From: a virus
Taxonomy: Duplodnaviria > Caudoviricetes
Strand: one strand, 5' to 3'
Virus record (IMG/VR): IMGVR_UViG_3300035396_000161
Span: 1 to 25,792 of that record
DNA length: 25,792 bases
The notes beneath the pieces are model-generated. The model saw only the letters and a program-made list of their open reading frames with translations. It was not told where the DNA came from and made no database searches. The translations under genes were made by a program, and so were the position numbers. Each line of letters starts with the position of its first letter. The stretch's first letter is position 1. Shown here piece by piece: positions 3,944 to 25,792 of this stretch.

Positions 3944-6199
3944 ATGAAAGATTTATTCAGTTTAGGTAAACTTTATGTGTCAGATTTCATTAAAGATGAA
4001 AATGATATTAGATGTGATAAAGTTGAAATGAAAGTTGTTATGGATGAAAGTATAGGTGCGGTTAGATTATCGGAATTAGCACCATTAGATGCTATGTATG
4101 GAAAATATTGGTATCGTTCAGGTATTAATGATACTATGAAAAGAGAATTAAAAGATATTGTTGATAGCATATTGAAAGTTTACAAATTAAAAGAAAATGA
4201 TGTGTGGATTGATTGTGCTTGTAATGATGGTACTTTATTAAGTTGTTTACCAACAAATTTAACAAGAATAGGTATAGACCCAGCAGATGATACATATAAA
4301 GCTGAATCATCTAAACATTCAGATTTAATTATACAAGATTATTTTACAGCAAAATCTTATAAAAATTCTAAATTTGGAAATCAAAAAGCAAAAATATTTA
4401 CATGTATTGCAATGTTTTATGATTTAATGAATCCAGACGATTTTATAAAAGATGTTTATGAAATTTTAGATGATAATGGTATGTGGGTAATGCAATTATC
4501 ATATACACCATTAATGATTGAACAAATGGCATTTGATAATTTCTGTCATGAACATGCTTATTATTATTCATTATTTAATATTAAAAAATTATTAGAAAGA
4601 AATGGTTTTAAAATTGCAGATTGTCAATTGAATGATGTGAATGGTGGTAGTTTTAGAATATATATAATGAAAGAAAATTCTAATGAAAAGGTATTTGGTA
4701 CTCAACCATATAGAGATGTGTGTGATTTTAGAGTAAAATCTATATTAGAATATGAAAAATCTTTAAAATTAGATGAAGAATCTACTTGGTTAAAATATTT
4801 TGATGATATAAATAAATTGAAAAAACAAACTGTAGATTTTATAAAAGCTGAAAAGGCTAATGGTAAAGTTGTTTGGGGGTATGGTGCTTGCCACGATTCA
4901 AAAACAAGATTAATTACTGAAAACGGATTTAAAAATTTTGATGAAATAGAAAAAACTGATAAAATTTATACATTAAATCCAACAACAAATCAAATAGAAA
5001 TATCAACAATTGACGATATTATGATATATGATTATGATGACGATATGGTACATTTTTATGGTAAAAGAATAGATATGTTAGTAACACCTAACCATAATAT
5101 GTTATATCAAACATATAATAATAAAAATTTAAAATTTAAAATAGCCGATGAACTAATGAAAAATTGTCATTTTGCATTACCTAAAGGTGAATGGGTTGGA
5201 AAAGATACTGATAAGTTTTTAATTACAGATTTTGTTGACCAAAGCACATATAGTAATAAATGTAGAAAGATACAAAACGAATTTGAAACATCCGATTTTT
5301 TATATTTATTAGGTTTATTTATTGGTGATGGTTATGTTAAAAATCAAGAAGGTGATTTAGCTTCTGCATTTTGTATTCCTAAACAAGATAAAGCAAGACA
5401 AAAATTGATTAGTACATTAAATAATATGAATTTGTCATTTAGAGAATATGATGCTGAAATACAAGTTGCTTCACAAGCATTAAGAACAATATTTTTAGAA
5501 TGTGAACAAGGTGCAAAAAATAAAAGAATACCCAAATGGGCTTTAGAATATTCACCAAAATATTTAAGATGTTTATTAGATGGTTTGGTTGATAGTGATG
5601 GTTGGTATGAAAAAAATAGTAGAAAAAAATATGTAACAACATCAATAAATTTAGCCAAAGATGTTGTAGAATTATGTATTAAATTAGGTTATTTTCCATC
5701 AATAACAACAAAAAATCCACCTAAAAAAGCACCTAAAATAAAAGGTCGTGAAATACATTGTTCAATAGCATATCAAATCAATATAGGAAAAAGTCAACCA
5801 TATTGTTATAATACCAACACTAAATATCCAACATTAAAAGAAAAATATACTGGTAAAGTGTGGTGTTTATCAACAAATAATAAAAACTTTTTAGTTGAAA
5901 GAAATGGTAAAGTTGCTTTTTCAGGTAATTCAACTAAAGGTAATACACTATTGCAATATTTTGAATTAGATAATACTTTAATAGATGGTATTGCTGAAAG
6001 AAGTAAATATAAGTGGGGATTAAAAACAATTGGAACAAATATTCCAATCTGTTCAGAAGATGAAATGAGAAAAGCTAAACCAGATTATTTATTAGTATTA
6101 CCTTGGCATTTTATTAATGAATTTGTTGAAAGAGAAAAAGAATTTTTAGATGGTGGTGGTAAATTTATTGTACCTTGCCCAAAATTTGAAATAATATAA
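3944..6199 (+). CDS. NDP-hexose C-methyltransferase (Methyltransf_14 type) containing an intein
   Basis: YWYRSG, IDCACNDGTLL, GIDP, DNFCHEHAYYYS, VNGGSFR, WGYGA/STKGNTLL, PDYLLVLPWHF, GGKFIVPCP. The spliced extein is 404 aa. Confidence 0.9.
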   Translation: MKDLFSLGKLYVSDFIKDENDIRCDKVEMKVVMDESIGAVRLSELAPLDAMYGKYWYRSGINDTMKRELKDIVDSILKVYKLKENDVWIDCACNDGTLLSCLPTNLTRIGIDPADDTYKAESSKHSDLIIQDYFTAKSYKNSKFGNQKAKIFTCIAMFYDLMNPDDFIKDVYEILDDNGMWVMQLSYTPLMIEQMAFDNFCHEHAYYYSLFNIKKLLERNGFKIADCQLNDVNGGSFRIYIMKENSNEKVFGTQPYRDVCDFRVKSILEYEKSLKLDEESTWLKYFDDINKLKKQTVDFIKAEKANGKVVWGYGACHDSKTRLITENGFKNFDEIEKTDKIYTLNPTTNQIEISTIDDIMIYDYDDDMVHFYGKRIDMLVTPNHNMLYQTYNNKNLKFKIADELMKNCHFALPKGEWVGKDTDKFLITDFVDQSTYSNKCRKIQNEFETSDFLYLLGLFIGDGYVKNQEGDLASAFCIPKQDKARQKLISTLNNMNLSFREYDAEIQVASQALRTIFLECEQGAKNKRIPKWALEYSPKYLRCLLDGLVDSDGWYEKNSRKKYVTTSINLAKDVVELCIKLGYFPSITTKNPPKKAPKIKGREIHCSIAYQINIGKSQPYCYNTNTKYPTLKEKYTGKVWCLSTNNKNFLVERNGKVAFSGNSTKGNTLLQYFELDNTLIDGIAERSKYKWGLKTIGTNIPICSEDEMRKAKPDYLLVLPWHFINEFVEREKEFLDGGGKFIVPCPKFEII
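4889..5929 (+). mobile_element. Intein (347 aa) with LAGLIDADG homing endonuclease
   Basis: Starts CHDSKTRLITENG (C1), block B VTPNHNM, LAGLIDADG motifs LLGLFIGDG and LLDGLVDSDG, ends VWCL...NFLVERNGKVAFSGN followed by Ser(+1). Removal rejoins GYGA-STKG. Confidence 0.93.
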
Positions 6200-6533: not shown

Positions 6534-8138
6534 ATGTTTAAAACATATAGCTTTAATATACGTAAAAATTCAGACAAAGATACATATAATGATATTATTT
6601 ATCGTTATACAGGTATGTATTTTAAGCTATTCAACAATGTTGATTCATTAGACGATAAAGACTTCATAACAGAAAATAGAGATAAATATAACTTTTCAAG
6701 AGATATATACGATTCATGTTGTGAGGATGTTAACATGATGCACAAATCAGTAGCAGAAATTAGACAAGAAAAAGAAGAAAAAATTAAAGAAATTAATGAA
6801 TGGCTTGACGAATACGATAAAAAAACATCACATACTAAAAAACAAAAGCATCATAGAAGAAAATTAATCAAAACTAAAGAATTTCTTATTCGTACTAAAG
6901 ATAATGGTATATGTTTTGGGGGTAAACACATACTTAGACAAATAACTGAATTACACAACAAAATACGAAATACACAAGATAAAACAGAAATATATAAATT
7001 AGACGGAAGATTAAGAAATTTAAAAGCAACATACAAAAGTAATAGAGAAAGAACTATATTTATCATTGGTAGAGCTAGTGAAGGTGGAAATAGATACTTC
7101 GAGTTTCATTTAGATGAAAACTACATCATTTTTAAATTCGACAGAAATACACACATTAGATTAGATTTAACACAAATGCACGGAAGCGAAAGACAACAAA
7201 CAATAATAAAATTACAAGAATTAGCTGTTAATGAAGATATACCTATCACTGTACGCTTAGGAAGACATAAAGTCCACATATCTTTTGATACAGAAATAGT
7301 ATATGGTTATGGTTTTGATACTAAAGCTTTCAACATCGCTGTTAAAGATAATCCTGAATTGGATAAAGCTACTATTAGACAAGAATTCTTTAAAGAGCAA
7401 GAAAGTAGAAAACTTGATGGTAAAATAGTTAATAGAGTTGCAGGTTTTGACTTGAATCCTAGTGAATTAGGATTTTCAATTGTTGATGTTGATGAAAATG
7501 GAGAAGTTGTAAATATAGTATTTCATCATGCTTATCATGTTGGTTTTTATGTAAACAAAAAGAAGATGAGTAGAAGAGATAGAAACAAATACTACTATGA
7601 ATTAGCTATGTGTGTTAAGGACGCTTTTAAACACTGTGTACATTATAAAGTGTCTATGGTTTCGGTAGAAGAATTGAAAAAAATAACCACTAAAGATTTA
7701 AAATCGAACAGTAAATATTTCAATAGAATAACGAAAAATAATTGGAATAGAATTTTACAAATTGAGTTAATAAATAGTTATTGTGATAAAAACGGTATAT
7801 TATACAGAGAAGTAGAAGCTTATTACTCTTCTTTTATTGGTAATATGATGTATAAAATATATGATTGTTGTGCTGCTGCTGTTGAGTTAGCACGTAGAGG
7901 ATATTTAAAATTTAATAAAAACTGTAAGAATCGAGTATATCCAAGAATAAGTAATGATGTCTATCAGTACATGTGTTATCTGGTAGGTTGTGAAATTACT
8001 AAACCATCTTGGATGAAATGTTATAAAATATTTAAAATGTTTGATTCTGTATTAATTGAGGGCTGGTGGAGAAACAAAAACTTCACTGAAGGTAAATACT
8101 TAAACACCAAAAAATCTAATGTAGTATTTAGATACTAA
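6534..8138 (+). CDS. tnpB: TnpB-related RuvC nuclease (Cas12-ancestor family, zinc-finger-less variant), 534 aa
   Basis: RuvC-I VAGFDLNP, RuvC-II VSVEEL, VEAYYSSFIG, RuvC-III YDCCAAAVELARRG. N-terminal ICFGGK and IIG-x5-GNRYF motifs match the TnpB-related accessory family. D-E-D triad intact. Confidence 0.8.
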   Translation: MFKTYSFNIRKNSDKDTYNDIIYRYTGMYFKLFNNVDSLDDKDFITENRDKYNFSRDIYDSCCEDVNMMHKSVAEIRQEKEEKIKEINEWLDEYDKKTSHTKKQKHHRRKLIKTKEFLIRTKDNGICFGGKHILRQITELHNKIRNTQDKTEIYKLDGRLRNLKATYKSNRERTIFIIGRASEGGNRYFEFHLDENYIIFKFDRNTHIRLDLTQMHGSERQQTIIKLQELAVNEDIPITVRLGRHKVHISFDTEIVYGYGFDTKAFNIAVKDNPELDKATIRQEFFKEQESRKLDGKIVNRVAGFDLNPSELGFSIVDVDENGEVVNIVFHHAYHVGFYVNKKKMSRRDRNKYYYELAMCVKDAFKHCVHYKVSMVSVEELKKITTKDLKSNSKYFNRITKNNWNRILQIELINSYCDKNGILYREVEAYYSSFIGNMMYKIYDCCAAAVELARRGYLKFNKNCKNRVYPRISNDVYQYMCYLVGCEITKPSWMKCYKIFKMFDSVLIEGWWRNKNFTEGKYLNTKKSNVVFRY

Positions 8139-18319: not shown

Positions 18320-20113
18320 TTAGTATTTGTAAATATAATAGCCATTTACCAAACCTTCTTCACCATCAAACGTCGATAATGCTAAAATCCTACATTCTTC
18401 TTCACCACAATAAGATATATATTTATTAACATCAAAATAAAAGTCAAAAGATTTACCTTTAAAAAAATCAACAACAGAAATATTACCATATATATCACCA
18501 ATATAATCATTAAAATCTTTTAATTCGTCTCCATTTTTATCATATATTCCGTCTGAATCTTCAACATATTCATCTTCAAAATCATCACCATTTTCATCGT
18601 ATATACCATCTTCATCTTCAAATAAGTTATCGTCTTCGTCCATACTATATTTTTTCTTATTTTCATTTTTACTATATCTCTCTCTATCATCATATTCTTC
18701 TTTAAATTTATCAAAATCAAACCAAGGTTCGACAATAATGTTAGTAAGTTGTTCATCTCCAATATATTCTAATATATTGTCATTAAAATGGTCTCTTGTA
18801 TATTCCATAGCTTCATCATAAGTATAAACCGTATATTTTTTACCAAGACTTTGTACTGAAAACTCATATTCACTTTCTTCCACTATATCATCAATATCAA
18901 CACCAAAATATTCTGCTAATGCATTTGCTTTTTCACTATCATTACCAACATTATCTAAATCTATCAATTTATATTTATCCATATAAGGTTTTGGAAGTCC
19001 TTTTACACCATGTATATAATATGAATCTTTTTCACTACCATTATTTTCTAATCCTGTACATTCTTCTACAATTTTATACATAATATTTCTCATATCAATT
19101 GGATAAACTCTATCGAACATAATTTTTTCATTTTTTTCATTATATCTAATCATCATTCTTGATATAGTTGTGTATGGATGTTTATTTCCTTTATCATCAA
19201 CATATTCAATATCAAACATTAAATAAGCTACTTTAGAATTAAAGTCAAAAACATTTGAAAGTAATTTCATATTATGTTTTGTTCCACTTTCACCACCTGT
19301 ATAAATATTTTGACAACTATCATAAAAATTACTAATACTCATACGTAATTTATCATCAGCTTTATCACTTATATATAAATATAATTTAGAATTTTCAATA
19401 TTTTCTATATTTGTTTCAACATTTGAAACAGGTTGTCTAAGACCACTATATTCTTTATCATTATTCGGATTCCATTCTATATTTTTACCATAAGCTTTAT
19501 TATACGATTGAATGAATTTATATAAATTACTTTTATTATTACTAAATTCTTTAGTTTTAACATCTATCAATCTAATATCATTTGAGTATAACAGTTTTAA
19601 CATATCAATAGTGTTTAATGCATTTGATGTGTATTTGATATTTAAACTATCATGTAATAAAATATTTAATTGTTCGTTATCTATTAATATACTATAAATT
19701 TTACTTTTACGAAATTGTTTTAATAAATTAGTTTTAAAATATAATACTATTTCTTTAATTGTTTTATTAGTTATATTTTCATCTAATACTTCTATTTTAA
19801 CATTAGGTATTTTATCGGTATGTGCAGGTACATCCATATCTAAATATTTACTACCATGTCTTTTTGATAAAATATCAGACATATAAGATGGTATATCATC
19901 TCTTAGTGCTTCAAAAATAATATAATTTTGAAAATTTAAATAATAATTATTATTTTCAATCAAAATCATAAAATCTTTAATACTATCATTAGTCATATTT
20001 GAATCTACTACTTTTAAAACTTTTTCTGATACGACTTTTCTATCAGTTTCACCTGTCCTAACAGAATAAACCAATTTAAAAAATGCTTGTTGTTGTTTCG
20101 TTGTACTCGGCAT
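18320..20113 (-). CDS. DUF3008-like N-terminus fused to an uncharacterised phage domain (paralog of 21075-22508), acidic C-terminus
   Basis: MPSTTKQQQAFFKLV...GE...SIKDF resembles DUF3008. Core DKLRMSISNFYDSCQNIYTGG...FDRVYP...PYMDKY is shared with the paralog. Confidence 0.7.
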   Translation of the reverse strand: MPSTTKQQQAFFKLVYSVRTGETDRKVVSEKVLKVVDSNMTNDSIKDFMILIENNNYYLNFQNYIIFEALRDDIPSYMSDILSKRHGSKYLDMDVPAHTDKIPNVKIEVLDENITNKTIKEIVLYFKTNLLKQFRKSKIYSILIDNEQLNILLHDSLNIKYTSNALNTIDMLKLLYSNDIRLIDVKTKEFSNNKSNLYKFIQSYNKAYGKNIEWNPNNDKEYSGLRQPVSNVETNIENIENSKLYLYISDKADDKLRMSISNFYDSCQNIYTGGESGTKHNMKLLSNVFDFNSKVAYLMFDIEYVDDKGNKHPYTTISRMMIRYNEKNEKIMFDRVYPIDMRNIMYKIVEECTGLENNGSEKDSYYIHGVKGLPKPYMDKYKLIDLDNVGNDSEKANALAEYFGVDIDDIVEESEYEFSVQSLGKKYTVYTYDEAMEYTRDHFNDNILEYIGDEQLTNIIVEPWFDFDKFKEEYDDRERYSKNENKKKYSMDEDDNLFEDEDGIYDENGDDFEDEYVEDSDGIYDKNGDELKDFNDYIGDIYGNISVVDFFKGKSFDFYFDVNKYISYCGEEECRILALSTFDGEEGLVNGYYIYKY

Positions 20114-21074: not shown

Positions 21075-22508
21075 TTATTTAATTTTATATATATAATATA
21101 TTACATCTTTATAATTTGAAACATATTCAATATCGGTATTATTTGATAGTGCAATCAATCTACATTTTTCAATACCATAATAACTAACATATTCGTCTAT
21201 GTTTATATATTTATTTAATTTAATCACCTTATTTAAATCAAAAATATTTGTAATGTTATTAGTGTTTATTTTTCTAACATCTACTAAATATTTATTTTTA
21301 TTAAACCATTTCATATCAATTATATCATCAATACTATTTTCATCATATATAATTGAAAAATTGTTTAATATATACTCTTTAGTTTTAAATAAACTTTCAT
21401 TTTCATTATAACAGCTATATATACTACCATTTTTTAAAATATATTCATAATTATCATATTTCTTTACATCCGATTTATCAAAGTTAAAATAATTAGAAAG
21501 TATTTTAATTTTTAATTTATTATAATCAACATCATTATAATCAACTAATTTATATTTATCCATATATGGATTGTGTAAACCTTCTATTCCATTAATGTAA
21601 TAGTTTTCATCATTTATTCCACTATCAATCAAATCTGTATATTCTTCTATTATATTATATATCAATTTTGTTGCTGAAAATGGATAGGTTTTATCAAACA
21701 TTATTTTATCATCAACTACATTATATCTAATTATAGTTCTTGCAATTGGTGTGTATGGGTGTATATTTCCACGATTGTCTGTAAATTCAACATCAAACAT
21801 CAAATAAGCTATTTTAGAATTTACATCAAATACATTTGAAAGTAAATGTAAATTATACATATTTCCACTTTCACCACCAGTGTAAATATTTTGACAACTA
21901 TCGTAGAATTTACTAATACTCATACGTAATTTATCATCGGCTTTATCGCTAATATATAAATACAATTTAGAATTTTCAATATTATTTATATTTTCGTCAT
22001 AATTTGTAATTATATCTCTAAGTCCACTATATTCTTTATCGTTATTAGGATTCCAATCTATATTTTTTTCATAAGCTTTATTATAAGATTGTATGAATTT
22101 ATATAAATTACTTTTATTCCTGCTAAATTCTTTTGTTTTAGAATCCAATAAATTAATATCATTTGAATATAAATATTTCAAATCTGTTAATTGTAAATTT
22201 TTAACATCAATGTTTAACAATTCTCTTAGTGTAGTATCGGATTTTAATAATTTAAAGATACTACTTTTTTTAAATTGTTTTATTATATTAGTGTGTAAAT
22301 GATTAATAATTTTATCAATACATTTATCAACTAATTTCTTATTATCAACTTCTATTTTTACATTAGGTATTTTATCTGTATGTGATGGTACTTCCATATC
22401 CATATATTTACTACCATGTCTTTTTGATAGTATCTTATTCATATAAGATGGTATTTCATCTTTAAGTGCTTCCATAATGATATAATTTTCAAATTTTAAA
22501 TAATACAT
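21075..22508 (-). CDS. Uncharacterised phage protein, paralog of 18320-20113
   Basis: Long near-identical blocks (ILSKRHGSKY, NKSNLYKFIQSYNKAY, IENSKLYLYISDKADDKLRMSIS, PYMDKYKL). Confidence 0.7.
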   Translation of the reverse strand: MYYLKFENYIIMEALKDEIPSYMNKILSKRHGSKYMDMEVPSHTDKIPNVKIEVDNKKLVDKCIDKIINHLHTNIIKQFKKSSIFKLLKSDTTLRELLNIDVKNLQLTDLKYLYSNDINLLDSKTKEFSRNKSNLYKFIQSYNKAYEKNIDWNPNNDKEYSGLRDIITNYDENINNIENSKLYLYISDKADDKLRMSISKFYDSCQNIYTGGESGNMYNLHLLSNVFDVNSKIAYLMFDVEFTDNRGNIHPYTPIARTIIRYNVVDDKIMFDKTYPFSATKLIYNIIEEYTDLIDSGINDENYYINGIEGLHNPYMDKYKLVDYNDVDYNKLKIKILSNYFNFDKSDVKKYDNYEYILKNGSIYSCYNENESLFKTKEYILNNFSIIYDENSIDDIIDMKWFNKNKYLVDVRKINTNNITNIFDLNKVIKLNKYINIDEYVSYYGIEKCRLIALSNNTDIEYVSNYKDVIYYIYKIK

Positions 22509-24845: not shown

Positions 24846-24918
24846 GGAAACATAGTGGTGTTAGTCTATGCTCTGGACTGTAAATCCAGAGAAAAAGGTT
24901 CGATTCCTTTTGTTTCCA
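24846..24918 (+). tRNA. tRNA-Tyr(GTA), atypical
   Basis: Acceptor GGAAACA/TGTTTCC plus discriminator A; anticodon arm CTGGA-CTGTAAA-TCCAG; T arm AAAGG-TTCGATT-CCTTT. Weak D arm, no encoded CCA. Confidence 0.85.
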
Positions 24919-25080
24919 CTAAGGTGGTTTGATTCCCACTCGTTTATCGAGGTCAGATGAGACGGGAGTTTGGTTCGATTCCAAATGATTAGGGTAGTTT
25001 AAACACTACTAACTCTTGGTGAGCATAGATACGGCAGAACGATGTCGTTAGTCAGTGGAGGAATCCTTCTGATGTCGTTA
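24919..25080 (+). ncRNA. Structured, GC-elevated tract: pseudo-tRNA or unknown ncRNA
   Basis: T-arm hairpin tttgg-ttcgatt-ccaaa (24969-24985), gtgg-tttgattc-ccac (24924-24939), gtagt/actac stem, and the repeat gatgtcgtta at 25041 and 25071. Confidence 0.35.
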
Positions 25081-25091
25081 TTTAAAATAAC

Positions 25092-25223
25092 TTATAACGT
25101 TCGCAGGTATATTTCAGTTGCGGACTACAAAGCAAATAACTGTCAAATTATAAATAACTTAAATACGAGATATAATGATACAAGAAACACAAAACTCGAA
25201 ATTGAATACACCTGTTGTTATAG
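25092..25223 (+). repeat. attC-like site 1 (132 bp)
   Basis: ttataac-gttcg-caggtatatttcagttgcg ... cgaaattgaatacacctg-tt-gttatag: imperfect inverted repeat with AAC/GTT core boxes. Confidence 0.7.
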
Positions 25224-25432
25224 GTAGTTTTGTTAAATTTTACGACTGCCAACAAGCAAATAATGATAAAGATTTTTCAGGTGTAAACCCTAAATATTAC
25301 CCGATTGGTAAAGTAATAAATATTTATGATTATAAATCAACATTCGGTTATACTGATATGGTTTGTGATATACAAATAGGTGAACGCATTAGCAAGGCAC
25401 ATTTTGTGAGAGGTGTTGAAGTTGTTTCTTAA
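25175..25432 (+). CDS. Cassette gene 1, small hypothetical protein (possibly SH3-like beta barrel)
   Basis: 85 aa. Starts in the loop of site 1 and stops 4 nt before site 2. Confidence 0.65.
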   Translation: MIQETQNSKLNTPVVIGSFVKFYDCQQANNDKDFSGVNPKYYPIGKVINIYDYKSTFGYTDMVCDIQIGERISKAHFVRGVEVVS

Positions 25433-25436
25433 AATC

Positions 25437-25490
25437 ACCTAACGGTTGCAAATAAAACATCGTTTTAATGTGTTTTATTTGTTGTTACCA
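25437..25490 (+). repeat. attC-like site 2 (54 bp)
   Basis: acctaac (RYYYAAC)-ggttg-caaataaaaca ... tgttttatttg-tt-gttacca, with a perfect 11-bp inner stem. Confidence 0.72.
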
Positions 25491-25524
25491 ACAGTACGGA
25501 TTATTAACTTAAAAAACAAAATAG

Positions 25525-25737
25525 ATGAAACAAAAATTAGTATTAACAGATGAAGAATTAGAGAAGTTATTAATTGACACAGGTTCTTTTGATGATTGTC
25601 CAACAGAAAACGATAAGCAAAAAATGAGAGATTCTTATCGAAAAGTAGAAGCAGAAACAAATCAGCAAATAGAAGAAGCTGGTGGGGTAACTCAATGGTA
25701 CGAAAGCGGAAGAGGTCGATTAATGCACTCAAAGTAG
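25525..25737 (+). CDS. Cassette gene 2, small hypothetical protein
   Basis: 70 aa with A-rich leader; stop lies directly before site 3. Confidence 0.65.
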   Translation: MKQKLVLTDEELEKLLIDTGSFDDCPTENDKQKMRDSYRKVEAETNQQIEEAGGVTQWYESGRGRLMHSK

Positions 25738-25743
25738 TATTGT

Positions 25744-25792
25744 TGGTAACGGACGGTGCTAACCAACACACCGCCAACCTTTCGTGTCATAA
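25744..25792 (+). repeat. attC-like site 3, left arm (runs out of the window)
   Basis: gtattgttggtaac (25737-25750) is the 13/14 reverse complement of gttaccaacagtac (25484-25497); followed by a 5-nt spacer and a GC-richer arm. Confidence 0.6.

Follow-up and report, generated by a model that had tools for sequence, protein, structure and literature searches.

The array at the 3′ end of the contig

The window, that is, the whole stretch of DNA analysed here, is a phage contig of 25,792 nt with ~22% G+C. Judged by its relatives, the contig appears to derive from a large (jumbo) phage of Bacteroidota. Its sequence occurs mainly in microbial-mat metagenomes, a habitat call for which runs with a small share were left out. 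The last 700 nt or so (25092–25792) carry hairpin sites and small co-oriented genes (Table 1).

Table 1. Coordinates of the features at the 3′ end of the contig
Feature	Position	Strand	Remarks
tRNA-Tyr(GTA)	24846..24919	+	flanks the array on its 5′ side; no link to the cassette system seen
Site 1, attC-like hairpin, ~126-nt class	25095..25220	+ (bottom-strand equivalent)	from TAAC at 25095 to GTTA ending at 25220
Cassette 1 (hairpin 1 and ORF1)	25098..25442 (approximate)	+	345 nt; boundaries based on the indels of the family
ORF1	25175..25432	+	85 aa; the hairpin arm codes for its N-terminus
Site 2, 48-nt class hairpin	25440..25487	+	perfect 11-bp stem, conserved loop
Cassette 2 (hairpin 2 and ORF2)	25443..25749 (approximate)	+	307 nt
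ORF2	25525..25737	+	70 aa; predicted all-helical; no family match
Site 3, hairpin start of cassette 3	25747..25792	+	cut by the contig end

The original prediction described three TAAC boxes, two of them with complete hairpins, and this is what we find: the complete sites measure 126 and 48 nt (132 and 54 nt with 3-nt flanks) and the third is truncated. The geometry said to be common to them, TAAC + 5 nt + arm ... arm + TT + GTTA, is present in both complete sites. The proposed alternation of sites and ORFs holds for the stops, which precede the next TAAC by 7 nt (ORF1) and 9 nt (ORF2), but not for the start of ORF1. Its ATG falls within site 1, which lies at the distal end of the array and contains the 5′ leader and the first 15 codons of that gene.

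A detector of this geometry, run over the 25.8 kb, returned exactly two sites, sites 1 and 2. Shuffling the entire window (40 times) gave 0.4 sites per shuffle, and shuffling its final 793 nt gave 0.01; in the latter, two sites never arose in 2000 shuffles, a test that is biased toward sites 1 and 2 because the geometry was originally derived from them. Independent support comes from other genomes, across which sites of the same type recur. A site in a related locus (L145) shares 82% identity with site 1 across 134 nt, and other contigs match the region of site 1 from 25092/25094 to 25177. Exact copies of site 2 occur at 14 other loci among those compared, one of which is the same phage. The exact patterns of sites 1 and 3 gave no match among viral contigs.

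Several features of the surrounding DNA were noted. Downstream of the tRNA lie T-arm-like 11-mers at 24926 and 24972 and a repeated 10-mer at 25041 and 25071; the elements in 24897–25080, just 5′ of site 1, may be remnants of tRNA genes or a further small RNA. Further upstream, a C-methyltransferase-like gene (3944–6199) has within it a LAGLIDADG homing-endonuclease region that is likely an intein, and a 534-aa ORF without a family match (6534–8138) is flanked by two pieces of a methyltransferase-like gene. Two large paralogous minus-strand ORFs (18320–20113 and 21075–22508) show ~77% likeness at the DNA level over part of their length. A search for viral relatives of the 368-aa neighbour protein found none, and its one metagenome contig match (L400, 99.97% identical) stops at 25711. 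Therefore, no relative extends the array past 25792.

Hairpins that sit among co-oriented small genes could be terminators or RNA-processing signals, and the original prediction named such behaviour as grounds for abandoning a cassette array. A terminator scan found no terminator-like site, a promoter scan gave no signal above background and the tRNA was the sole Rfam match in the window. Signals of this kind would also leave unexplained both the pairing of cassette ends and the whole-unit indels described below. As the sole role of the hairpins this reading is refuted, and we give it next to no weight; a side role in expression is conceivable.

A family of arrays with self-complementary cassette ends

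Site 2 matches sequences in Polaribacter and Tenacibaculum phages and in two huge phages. A search with its pattern class located 112 loci in bacteria, with Bacteroidota as the predominant label among the 80 matches listed, and at least 122 in viral contigs. These loci are long arrays of hairpins whose arms are mutually unrelated in sequence. Pairing between a cassette's own two ends at six or more of 8 positions was observed in 308/466 viral intervals, compared with 12/462 for the flanks of the same site and a random expectation of 3.7%. In the window, the 13/14 complementarity reported for the ends of cassette 2 was confirmed (25484–25497 with 25737–25750). So was the looser pairing reported for cassette 1, whose ends are complementary only with a 2-nt slip.

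In modelled circles the junction of cassette 2 would form one long stem, with the + strand favoured (−19.3 vs −16.0 kcal/mol), and the coding strand is predicted to fold better in 295 of 303 viral cassettes. The full stem of site 1 is not the minimum-energy structure when that site folds freely in the circle model. Six runs, one of which (X1) may be the source sample, were searched as assembled contigs and yielded no joint or circle, a result that does not argue for their absence.

The mobile unit and the position of crossover

Own-end pairing fits either polarity, and the assignment of hairpins to genes was therefore tested with indels, linkage and junction variants. All clean indels between near-identical phage loci (3/3) break within TAAC and include the upstream hairpin, with an ambiguity of 4–18 nt. 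These are only three events, and our counts throughout are of non-independent events, the loci having been chosen via the site pattern or the recombinase with near-copies included. Of the near-identical loci L167 and L193, the former has 392 extra nt, comprising one hairpin with its following gene, and the latter has 762 extra nt that form two cassettes adjoining the recombinase gene. A methylase cassette of 781 nt distinguishes the cultured phages Danklef_1 and Danklef_4.

Linkage was scored for seven identical cassette bodies with differing sites. The upstream hairpin was kept and the downstream one changed in five, one of them in a true-IntI array; both were kept in the other two, and the reverse was seen in none. 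Moreover, the site 3 junction of the window is polymorphic across other samples. A contig of run X2 follows 25458–25756 with 1 difference and then enters another hairpin, and in contigs of run X6 an ORF2-like end is joined to a third hairpin, while site 3, starting at 25747, stands behind a different gene end. Among 270 viral cassettes, 99 have an ORF that starts within the hairpin upstream of it, and one has a stop beyond the next TAAC. In genes that start inside a hairpin, the GTT is a valine codon in 67/99 and an N-terminal peptide recurs, often xLNISDVxxS (viral loci L137–L399); this peptide could act as a protein-level marker of the system.

Compared as sequences, the loci show that the unit is an upstream hairpin plus its gene, with the crossover placed within TAAC, equivalent to G|TT when the non-coding strand is read. 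From the indels, linkage and junction variants follow the approximate boundaries of cassettes 1 and 2 (Table 1), with the exact TAA|C cut of cassette 1 inferred by analogy with integron chemistry. The expectation that related phages would gain, lose and reorder cassettes was thus borne out, and in whole units with exact joints, but at TAAC and not at the + strand G^TT where the crossover had been placed.

The opposite polarity, in which a cassette is a gene with its downstream hairpin and crosses over at the + strand G^TT, is contradicted by all three indels, by the linkage counts and by the junction variants of the window array, and it would separate the 99 genes counted above from their start codons. 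In its favour, one hairpin sequence stands before 6 different cassette starts, and an ORF1 homologue in L122 shares 10 nt of the start of the downstream site. We regard this polarity as very improbable; contradicted as the main route, the + strand G^TT would survive only as a rare wrong-core event. The hairpin before 6 different starts is the exact 48-nt site 2, and in near-identical body pairs (n=9) both hairpins differ in five, the upstream one being the closer in six and the downstream one in one. Therefore, hairpins are also replaced by a second route.

Cargo genes

ORF1 matched nothing in Pfam, NCBIfam or PHROG. Its predicted fold is a small beta-barrel with weak SH3/Tudor-like matches, none of them at E ≤ 0.001 in the fold searches. 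We found 33 homologues of ORF1 and 32 of ORF2. The homologues of ORF2 in L118–L121 (about 5016–5220) are ordinary site-free phage genes, and several homologues of ORF1 lack the N-terminus that the hairpin encodes; both observations offer a clue to how cassettes arise. A 640-kb phage holds a homologue of cassette 1 with decayed flanks. Related arrays carry DNA methyltransferases.

A short tyrosine recombinase adjoins related arrays

The window was said to hold no integrase, and we agree: positions 1–25,792 contain neither a recombinase nor an attI-like motif, which counts against the explanation that we favour below. The suggestion that a tyrosine recombinase be sought in phage and host was fruitful for related phages and for Flavobacteriales, but not for the contig itself.

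In Flavobacteriales genomes a tyrosine recombinase adjoins such arrays, with matches in 36 of 151 genomes at E ≤ 1e-60. The order there is recombinase, G|TT core and then cassettes, and a loose core pattern was present at 18/29 loci. Genes are read normally in 25 of 31 of these cassettes, and the '5/2' reading of the spacers lies on the opposite strand. It follows from this locus order that the + strand of the window is the bottom-strand equivalent and that the window genes are inverted. The same arrangement prevails in viral cassettes, of which 270/308 have inverted genes and 3 have genes in normal orientation.

The phage-encoded version of the recombinase is 265–277 aa long, and 433 viral stretches encode a relative of it. 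We examined 85 phage loci, namely the best 80 of the 433 viral stretches and five cultured-phage regions, near-copies included. Within 5 kb upstream of the recombinase gene there are 358 sites on the same strand and 1 on the other, against 6 downstream. An array lies upstream in 59 of the 62 loci that have 2 kb of upstream DNA, and a strict attI-like TAAC...ATATA motif precedes the gene in 53/82. This positional link suggests that the short recombinase is likely the enzyme that moves the cassettes. The phage's own copy would then either lie 3′ of the contig end or have been lost.

In the cultured phages Freya, Leef, Ingeline and Danklef (L315–L319) the recombinase gene stands behind cassette sites or an attI-like core, and in Danklef it is split. 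In the accessible text of PMC8776804 the recombinase gene of such cultured phages is taken as a sign of a temperate lifestyle. On a Chryseobacterium plasmid (L404, 12955–17560) the array behind the recombinase includes three copies of a differently spaced hairpin, and an IS110 transposase and a group II intron have inserted between its cassettes. On an Acinetobacter plasmid (L403, 5043–7064) a 221-aa relative of the recombinase is followed by an attI-like G|TT and then tet(X3), at whose 3′ end we see a matching TAAC together with the beginning of a hairpin. Among known systems, the 'xerD/tnpF' beside tet(X) comes close to this family but has the bacterial orientation.

The same cassettes might instead form an orphan or decaying array, served by no working recombinase of this phage and placed by the enzyme of the host or of a co-infecting phage. 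The contig lacks a recombinase and the ends of cassette 1 are 2 nt out of register. A PF00589 match is absent from four of five phage records with sites, the fifth having a broken gene only, which counts against a resident enzyme: two huge and two cultured phages with sites show no such match, and in the 640-kb phage that carries an ORF1 homologue the half-sites are decayed and the recombinase gene is broken. On the other hand, the contig stops within site 3, on the side where relatives have the recombinase, sites 1 and 2 are intact, and samples differ at the site 3 junction. We consider an orphan array a serious possibility, although on balance it is doubtful; at the level of the family it is compatible with the explanation that we favour.

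Comparison with integrons

The arrays resemble integrons in being composed of one-gene cassettes with folded AAC/GTT-core sites and with cassette ends that are complementary to one another, as exemplified by VchIntIA of Vibrio cholerae. Cassettes likewise appear to be gained at a fixed site beside a tyrosine recombinase, and one strand folds better than the other. Read on the strand opposite the genes, sites 1 and 2 have the inverted cores RYYYAAC/GTTRRRY and the paired inner arms of attC. Mutually complementary ends are found in cassette 2 (13/14), in slipped form in cassette 1 and across the family (308/466), and whole units are gained and lost at G|TT, on the minus strand. The genes, however, are not read toward attC from a promoter near attI: phage cassette genes are inverted and often start within the site.

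The enzyme differs too. IntI carries an insertion labelled I2. According to the accessible text of PMC8138268, this insertion of ~40 aa is regarded as essential for integron function. It is absent from the short array-linked enzymes, in which the spacing from R to HxxR is 83–92 aa (a range with one motif mis-call, L273) vs 130–132 aa in 12 IntI, and the alignment of a short enzyme to VchIntIA (PDB 2a3v) splits at the insertion. The L066 recombinase scores 203 bits against TIGR02249, for which the cut-off is 265; its top NCBIfam match is XerA_Arch, also below cut-off. A quick tree places IntI and the short enzymes in one group, apart from XerC/D, and the six Xer rows, among which there is no archaeal XerA, form a branch of their own (100) separate from the short enzymes. 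The system does not belong to XerC/XerD/XerA-dif. The tree leaves its inner order open and therefore we claim no direction of descent.

The sites also lack the canonical extrahelical base. In the window the L-box base is missing, the stem of site 2 being perfect and the bulge of site 1 lying on the other arm. True-IntI arrays have a canonical bulged base in 79/99 sites, whereas phage sites have it at most twice in 346 and Flavobacteriales sites never (0/61). Phage sites without a bulge instead retain a G-T pair at a distance of 15 nt from GTT (257/291).

An enzyme without the insertion acting on sites without the bulged base, together with the recurrence of identical hairpins across many arrays, might suggest double-stranded exchange at short cores or repeated hairpins, effected by the short recombinase or by phage homologous recombination with no folding of single-stranded DNA. 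However, for two of the three indels the swapped neighbours have just 4–6 nt in common around TAAC, the arms co-vary in unrelated sequences and the retained G-T pair favours one strand. We therefore think such exchange unlikely.

A sample of 201 genomes of the phylum Bacteroidota contained 67 with a true IntI (TIGR02249 above cut-off), in many cases beside long arrays (L428–L445). Complete integrons are known from Chlorobi, Ignavibacteriae and Salinibacter (PMC9024848, from its accessible text), and our frequency exceeds what that text would suggest. We compared 15 of 18 such loci (L431–L445), most of which share one site family; the other three, with sites of ordinary geometry or none, were left out. 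These arrays share the long spacer asymmetry (5/8, top strand) with those of the phages, but unlike them have the IntI insertion, the bulged base and normal gene orientation (53/62). The 5/2 spacing is thus no distinctive variant, as the original prediction had supposed, but an attC-like site read on the bottom strand, which again implies that these genes run opposite to those of bacterial cassettes.

A CALIN is defined by at least 2 attC without an integrase nearby; the contig shows two full sites and no integrase, and is cut within the array. Qi et al. 2023 (PMC9892861) classed Polaribacter phage P12002L as a CALIN with two sites and named its site attC. Ordinary attC sites served by a true host IntI would fit that naming and the 67 genomes above, many of which have IntI beside 5/8-spaced arrays. 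The P12002L attC1 is a member of the site family of the window, with the loop class of site 2, and the phage's cargo includes DNA methyltransferases. In the available part of that paper, five of six phage sites recombined with IntI1 and P12002L_attC1 alone did not. This failure, the near absence of the bulged base and the ending of phage arrays at the short enzyme make service by a host IntI improbable, somewhat more so than double-stranded exchange. In the same part of the paper P12002L is treated as integrase-less and bacterial-type, and neither a cognate recombinase nor an attI-like site nor an inversion of its genes is described.

In Riemerella anatipestifer, the accessible text of PMC13148043 describes homology-free gene uptake that involves 27 bp upstream and a 140-bp downstream attC-like hairpin, the enzyme being unidentified there; it likens the hairpin to attC. 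The literature that we searched, subscription papers falling largely outside it, contains no description of the system in the text available, the only partial mention being the P12002L attC; the accessible parts of PMC8618304, PMC8435808 and bioRxiv 2022.02.06.479319 do not describe it.

A proposed mechanism and its implications

In summary, cassettes in this family are bounded at TAAC, the upstream hairpin travels with its gene, the genes are inverted, and relatives have an attI-like motif and a recombinase. We therefore consider it probable that the window is the far end of a swappable row of hairpins and genes that exchanges at TAAC, likely through a short tyrosine recombinase of phage or host that would act on a folded strand in integron-like fashion.

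For excision, cutting, insertion and replicative resolution we draw on integron chemistry as set out in the accessible text of PMC8946536. By analogy, the recombinase would release cassettes in circular form, each with its hairpin closed by the paired ends of the cassette itself, and would cut the folded coding strand at TAA|C. The circle would then enter the attI-like site just before the recombinase gene and be resolved by replication. Insertion beside the recombinase would imply that the newest cassettes lie near the enzyme and that the window is the oldest end of the array. The lopsided internal loop and the conserved G-T wobble would determine strand choice, in place of the bulged base that the I2 insertion recognises. 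Inversion would place cassette genes and recombinase on one transcribed strand, with the hairpins supplying leaders and often start codons.

The system seems to work like an integron and, judged by its sequences, stands outside the IntI systems in the insertion, the bulged base and the direction of its genes. A wider proposal, to which we give even weight for and against, is that a second integron-type system, widespread and run by a recombinase without I2, is common to Bacteroidota and the phages that infect them. The phage version would be minimal, with reversed genes, and its new cassettes would arise when ordinary phage genes are fused behind a few reusable hairpins that provide the leader and start codon. 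The system would perhaps be ancestral to IntI integrons and the route of first capture for genes like tet(X).

The missing extrahelical base, the inverted genes and the recombinase without the IntI insertion appear to be real differences from known integrons. The insertion and the bulged bases are regarded as the basis of integron chemistry, and here a natural system without both yet swaps cassettes at exact joints. That view, and the origin of integrons, become directly testable in the cultured phages Leef, Freya and Ingeline. The contribution of the window, though the enzyme is absent from it, lies in junction variants from independent samples. The occurrence of the same genes with and without sites, and of one hairpin at the head of many genes, bears on how cassettes are made. 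Such arrays are likely overlooked by standard integron tools, and their recombinase family is also found beside tet(X3). Through this system phages would have a site-specific trade in accessory and anti-restriction genes.
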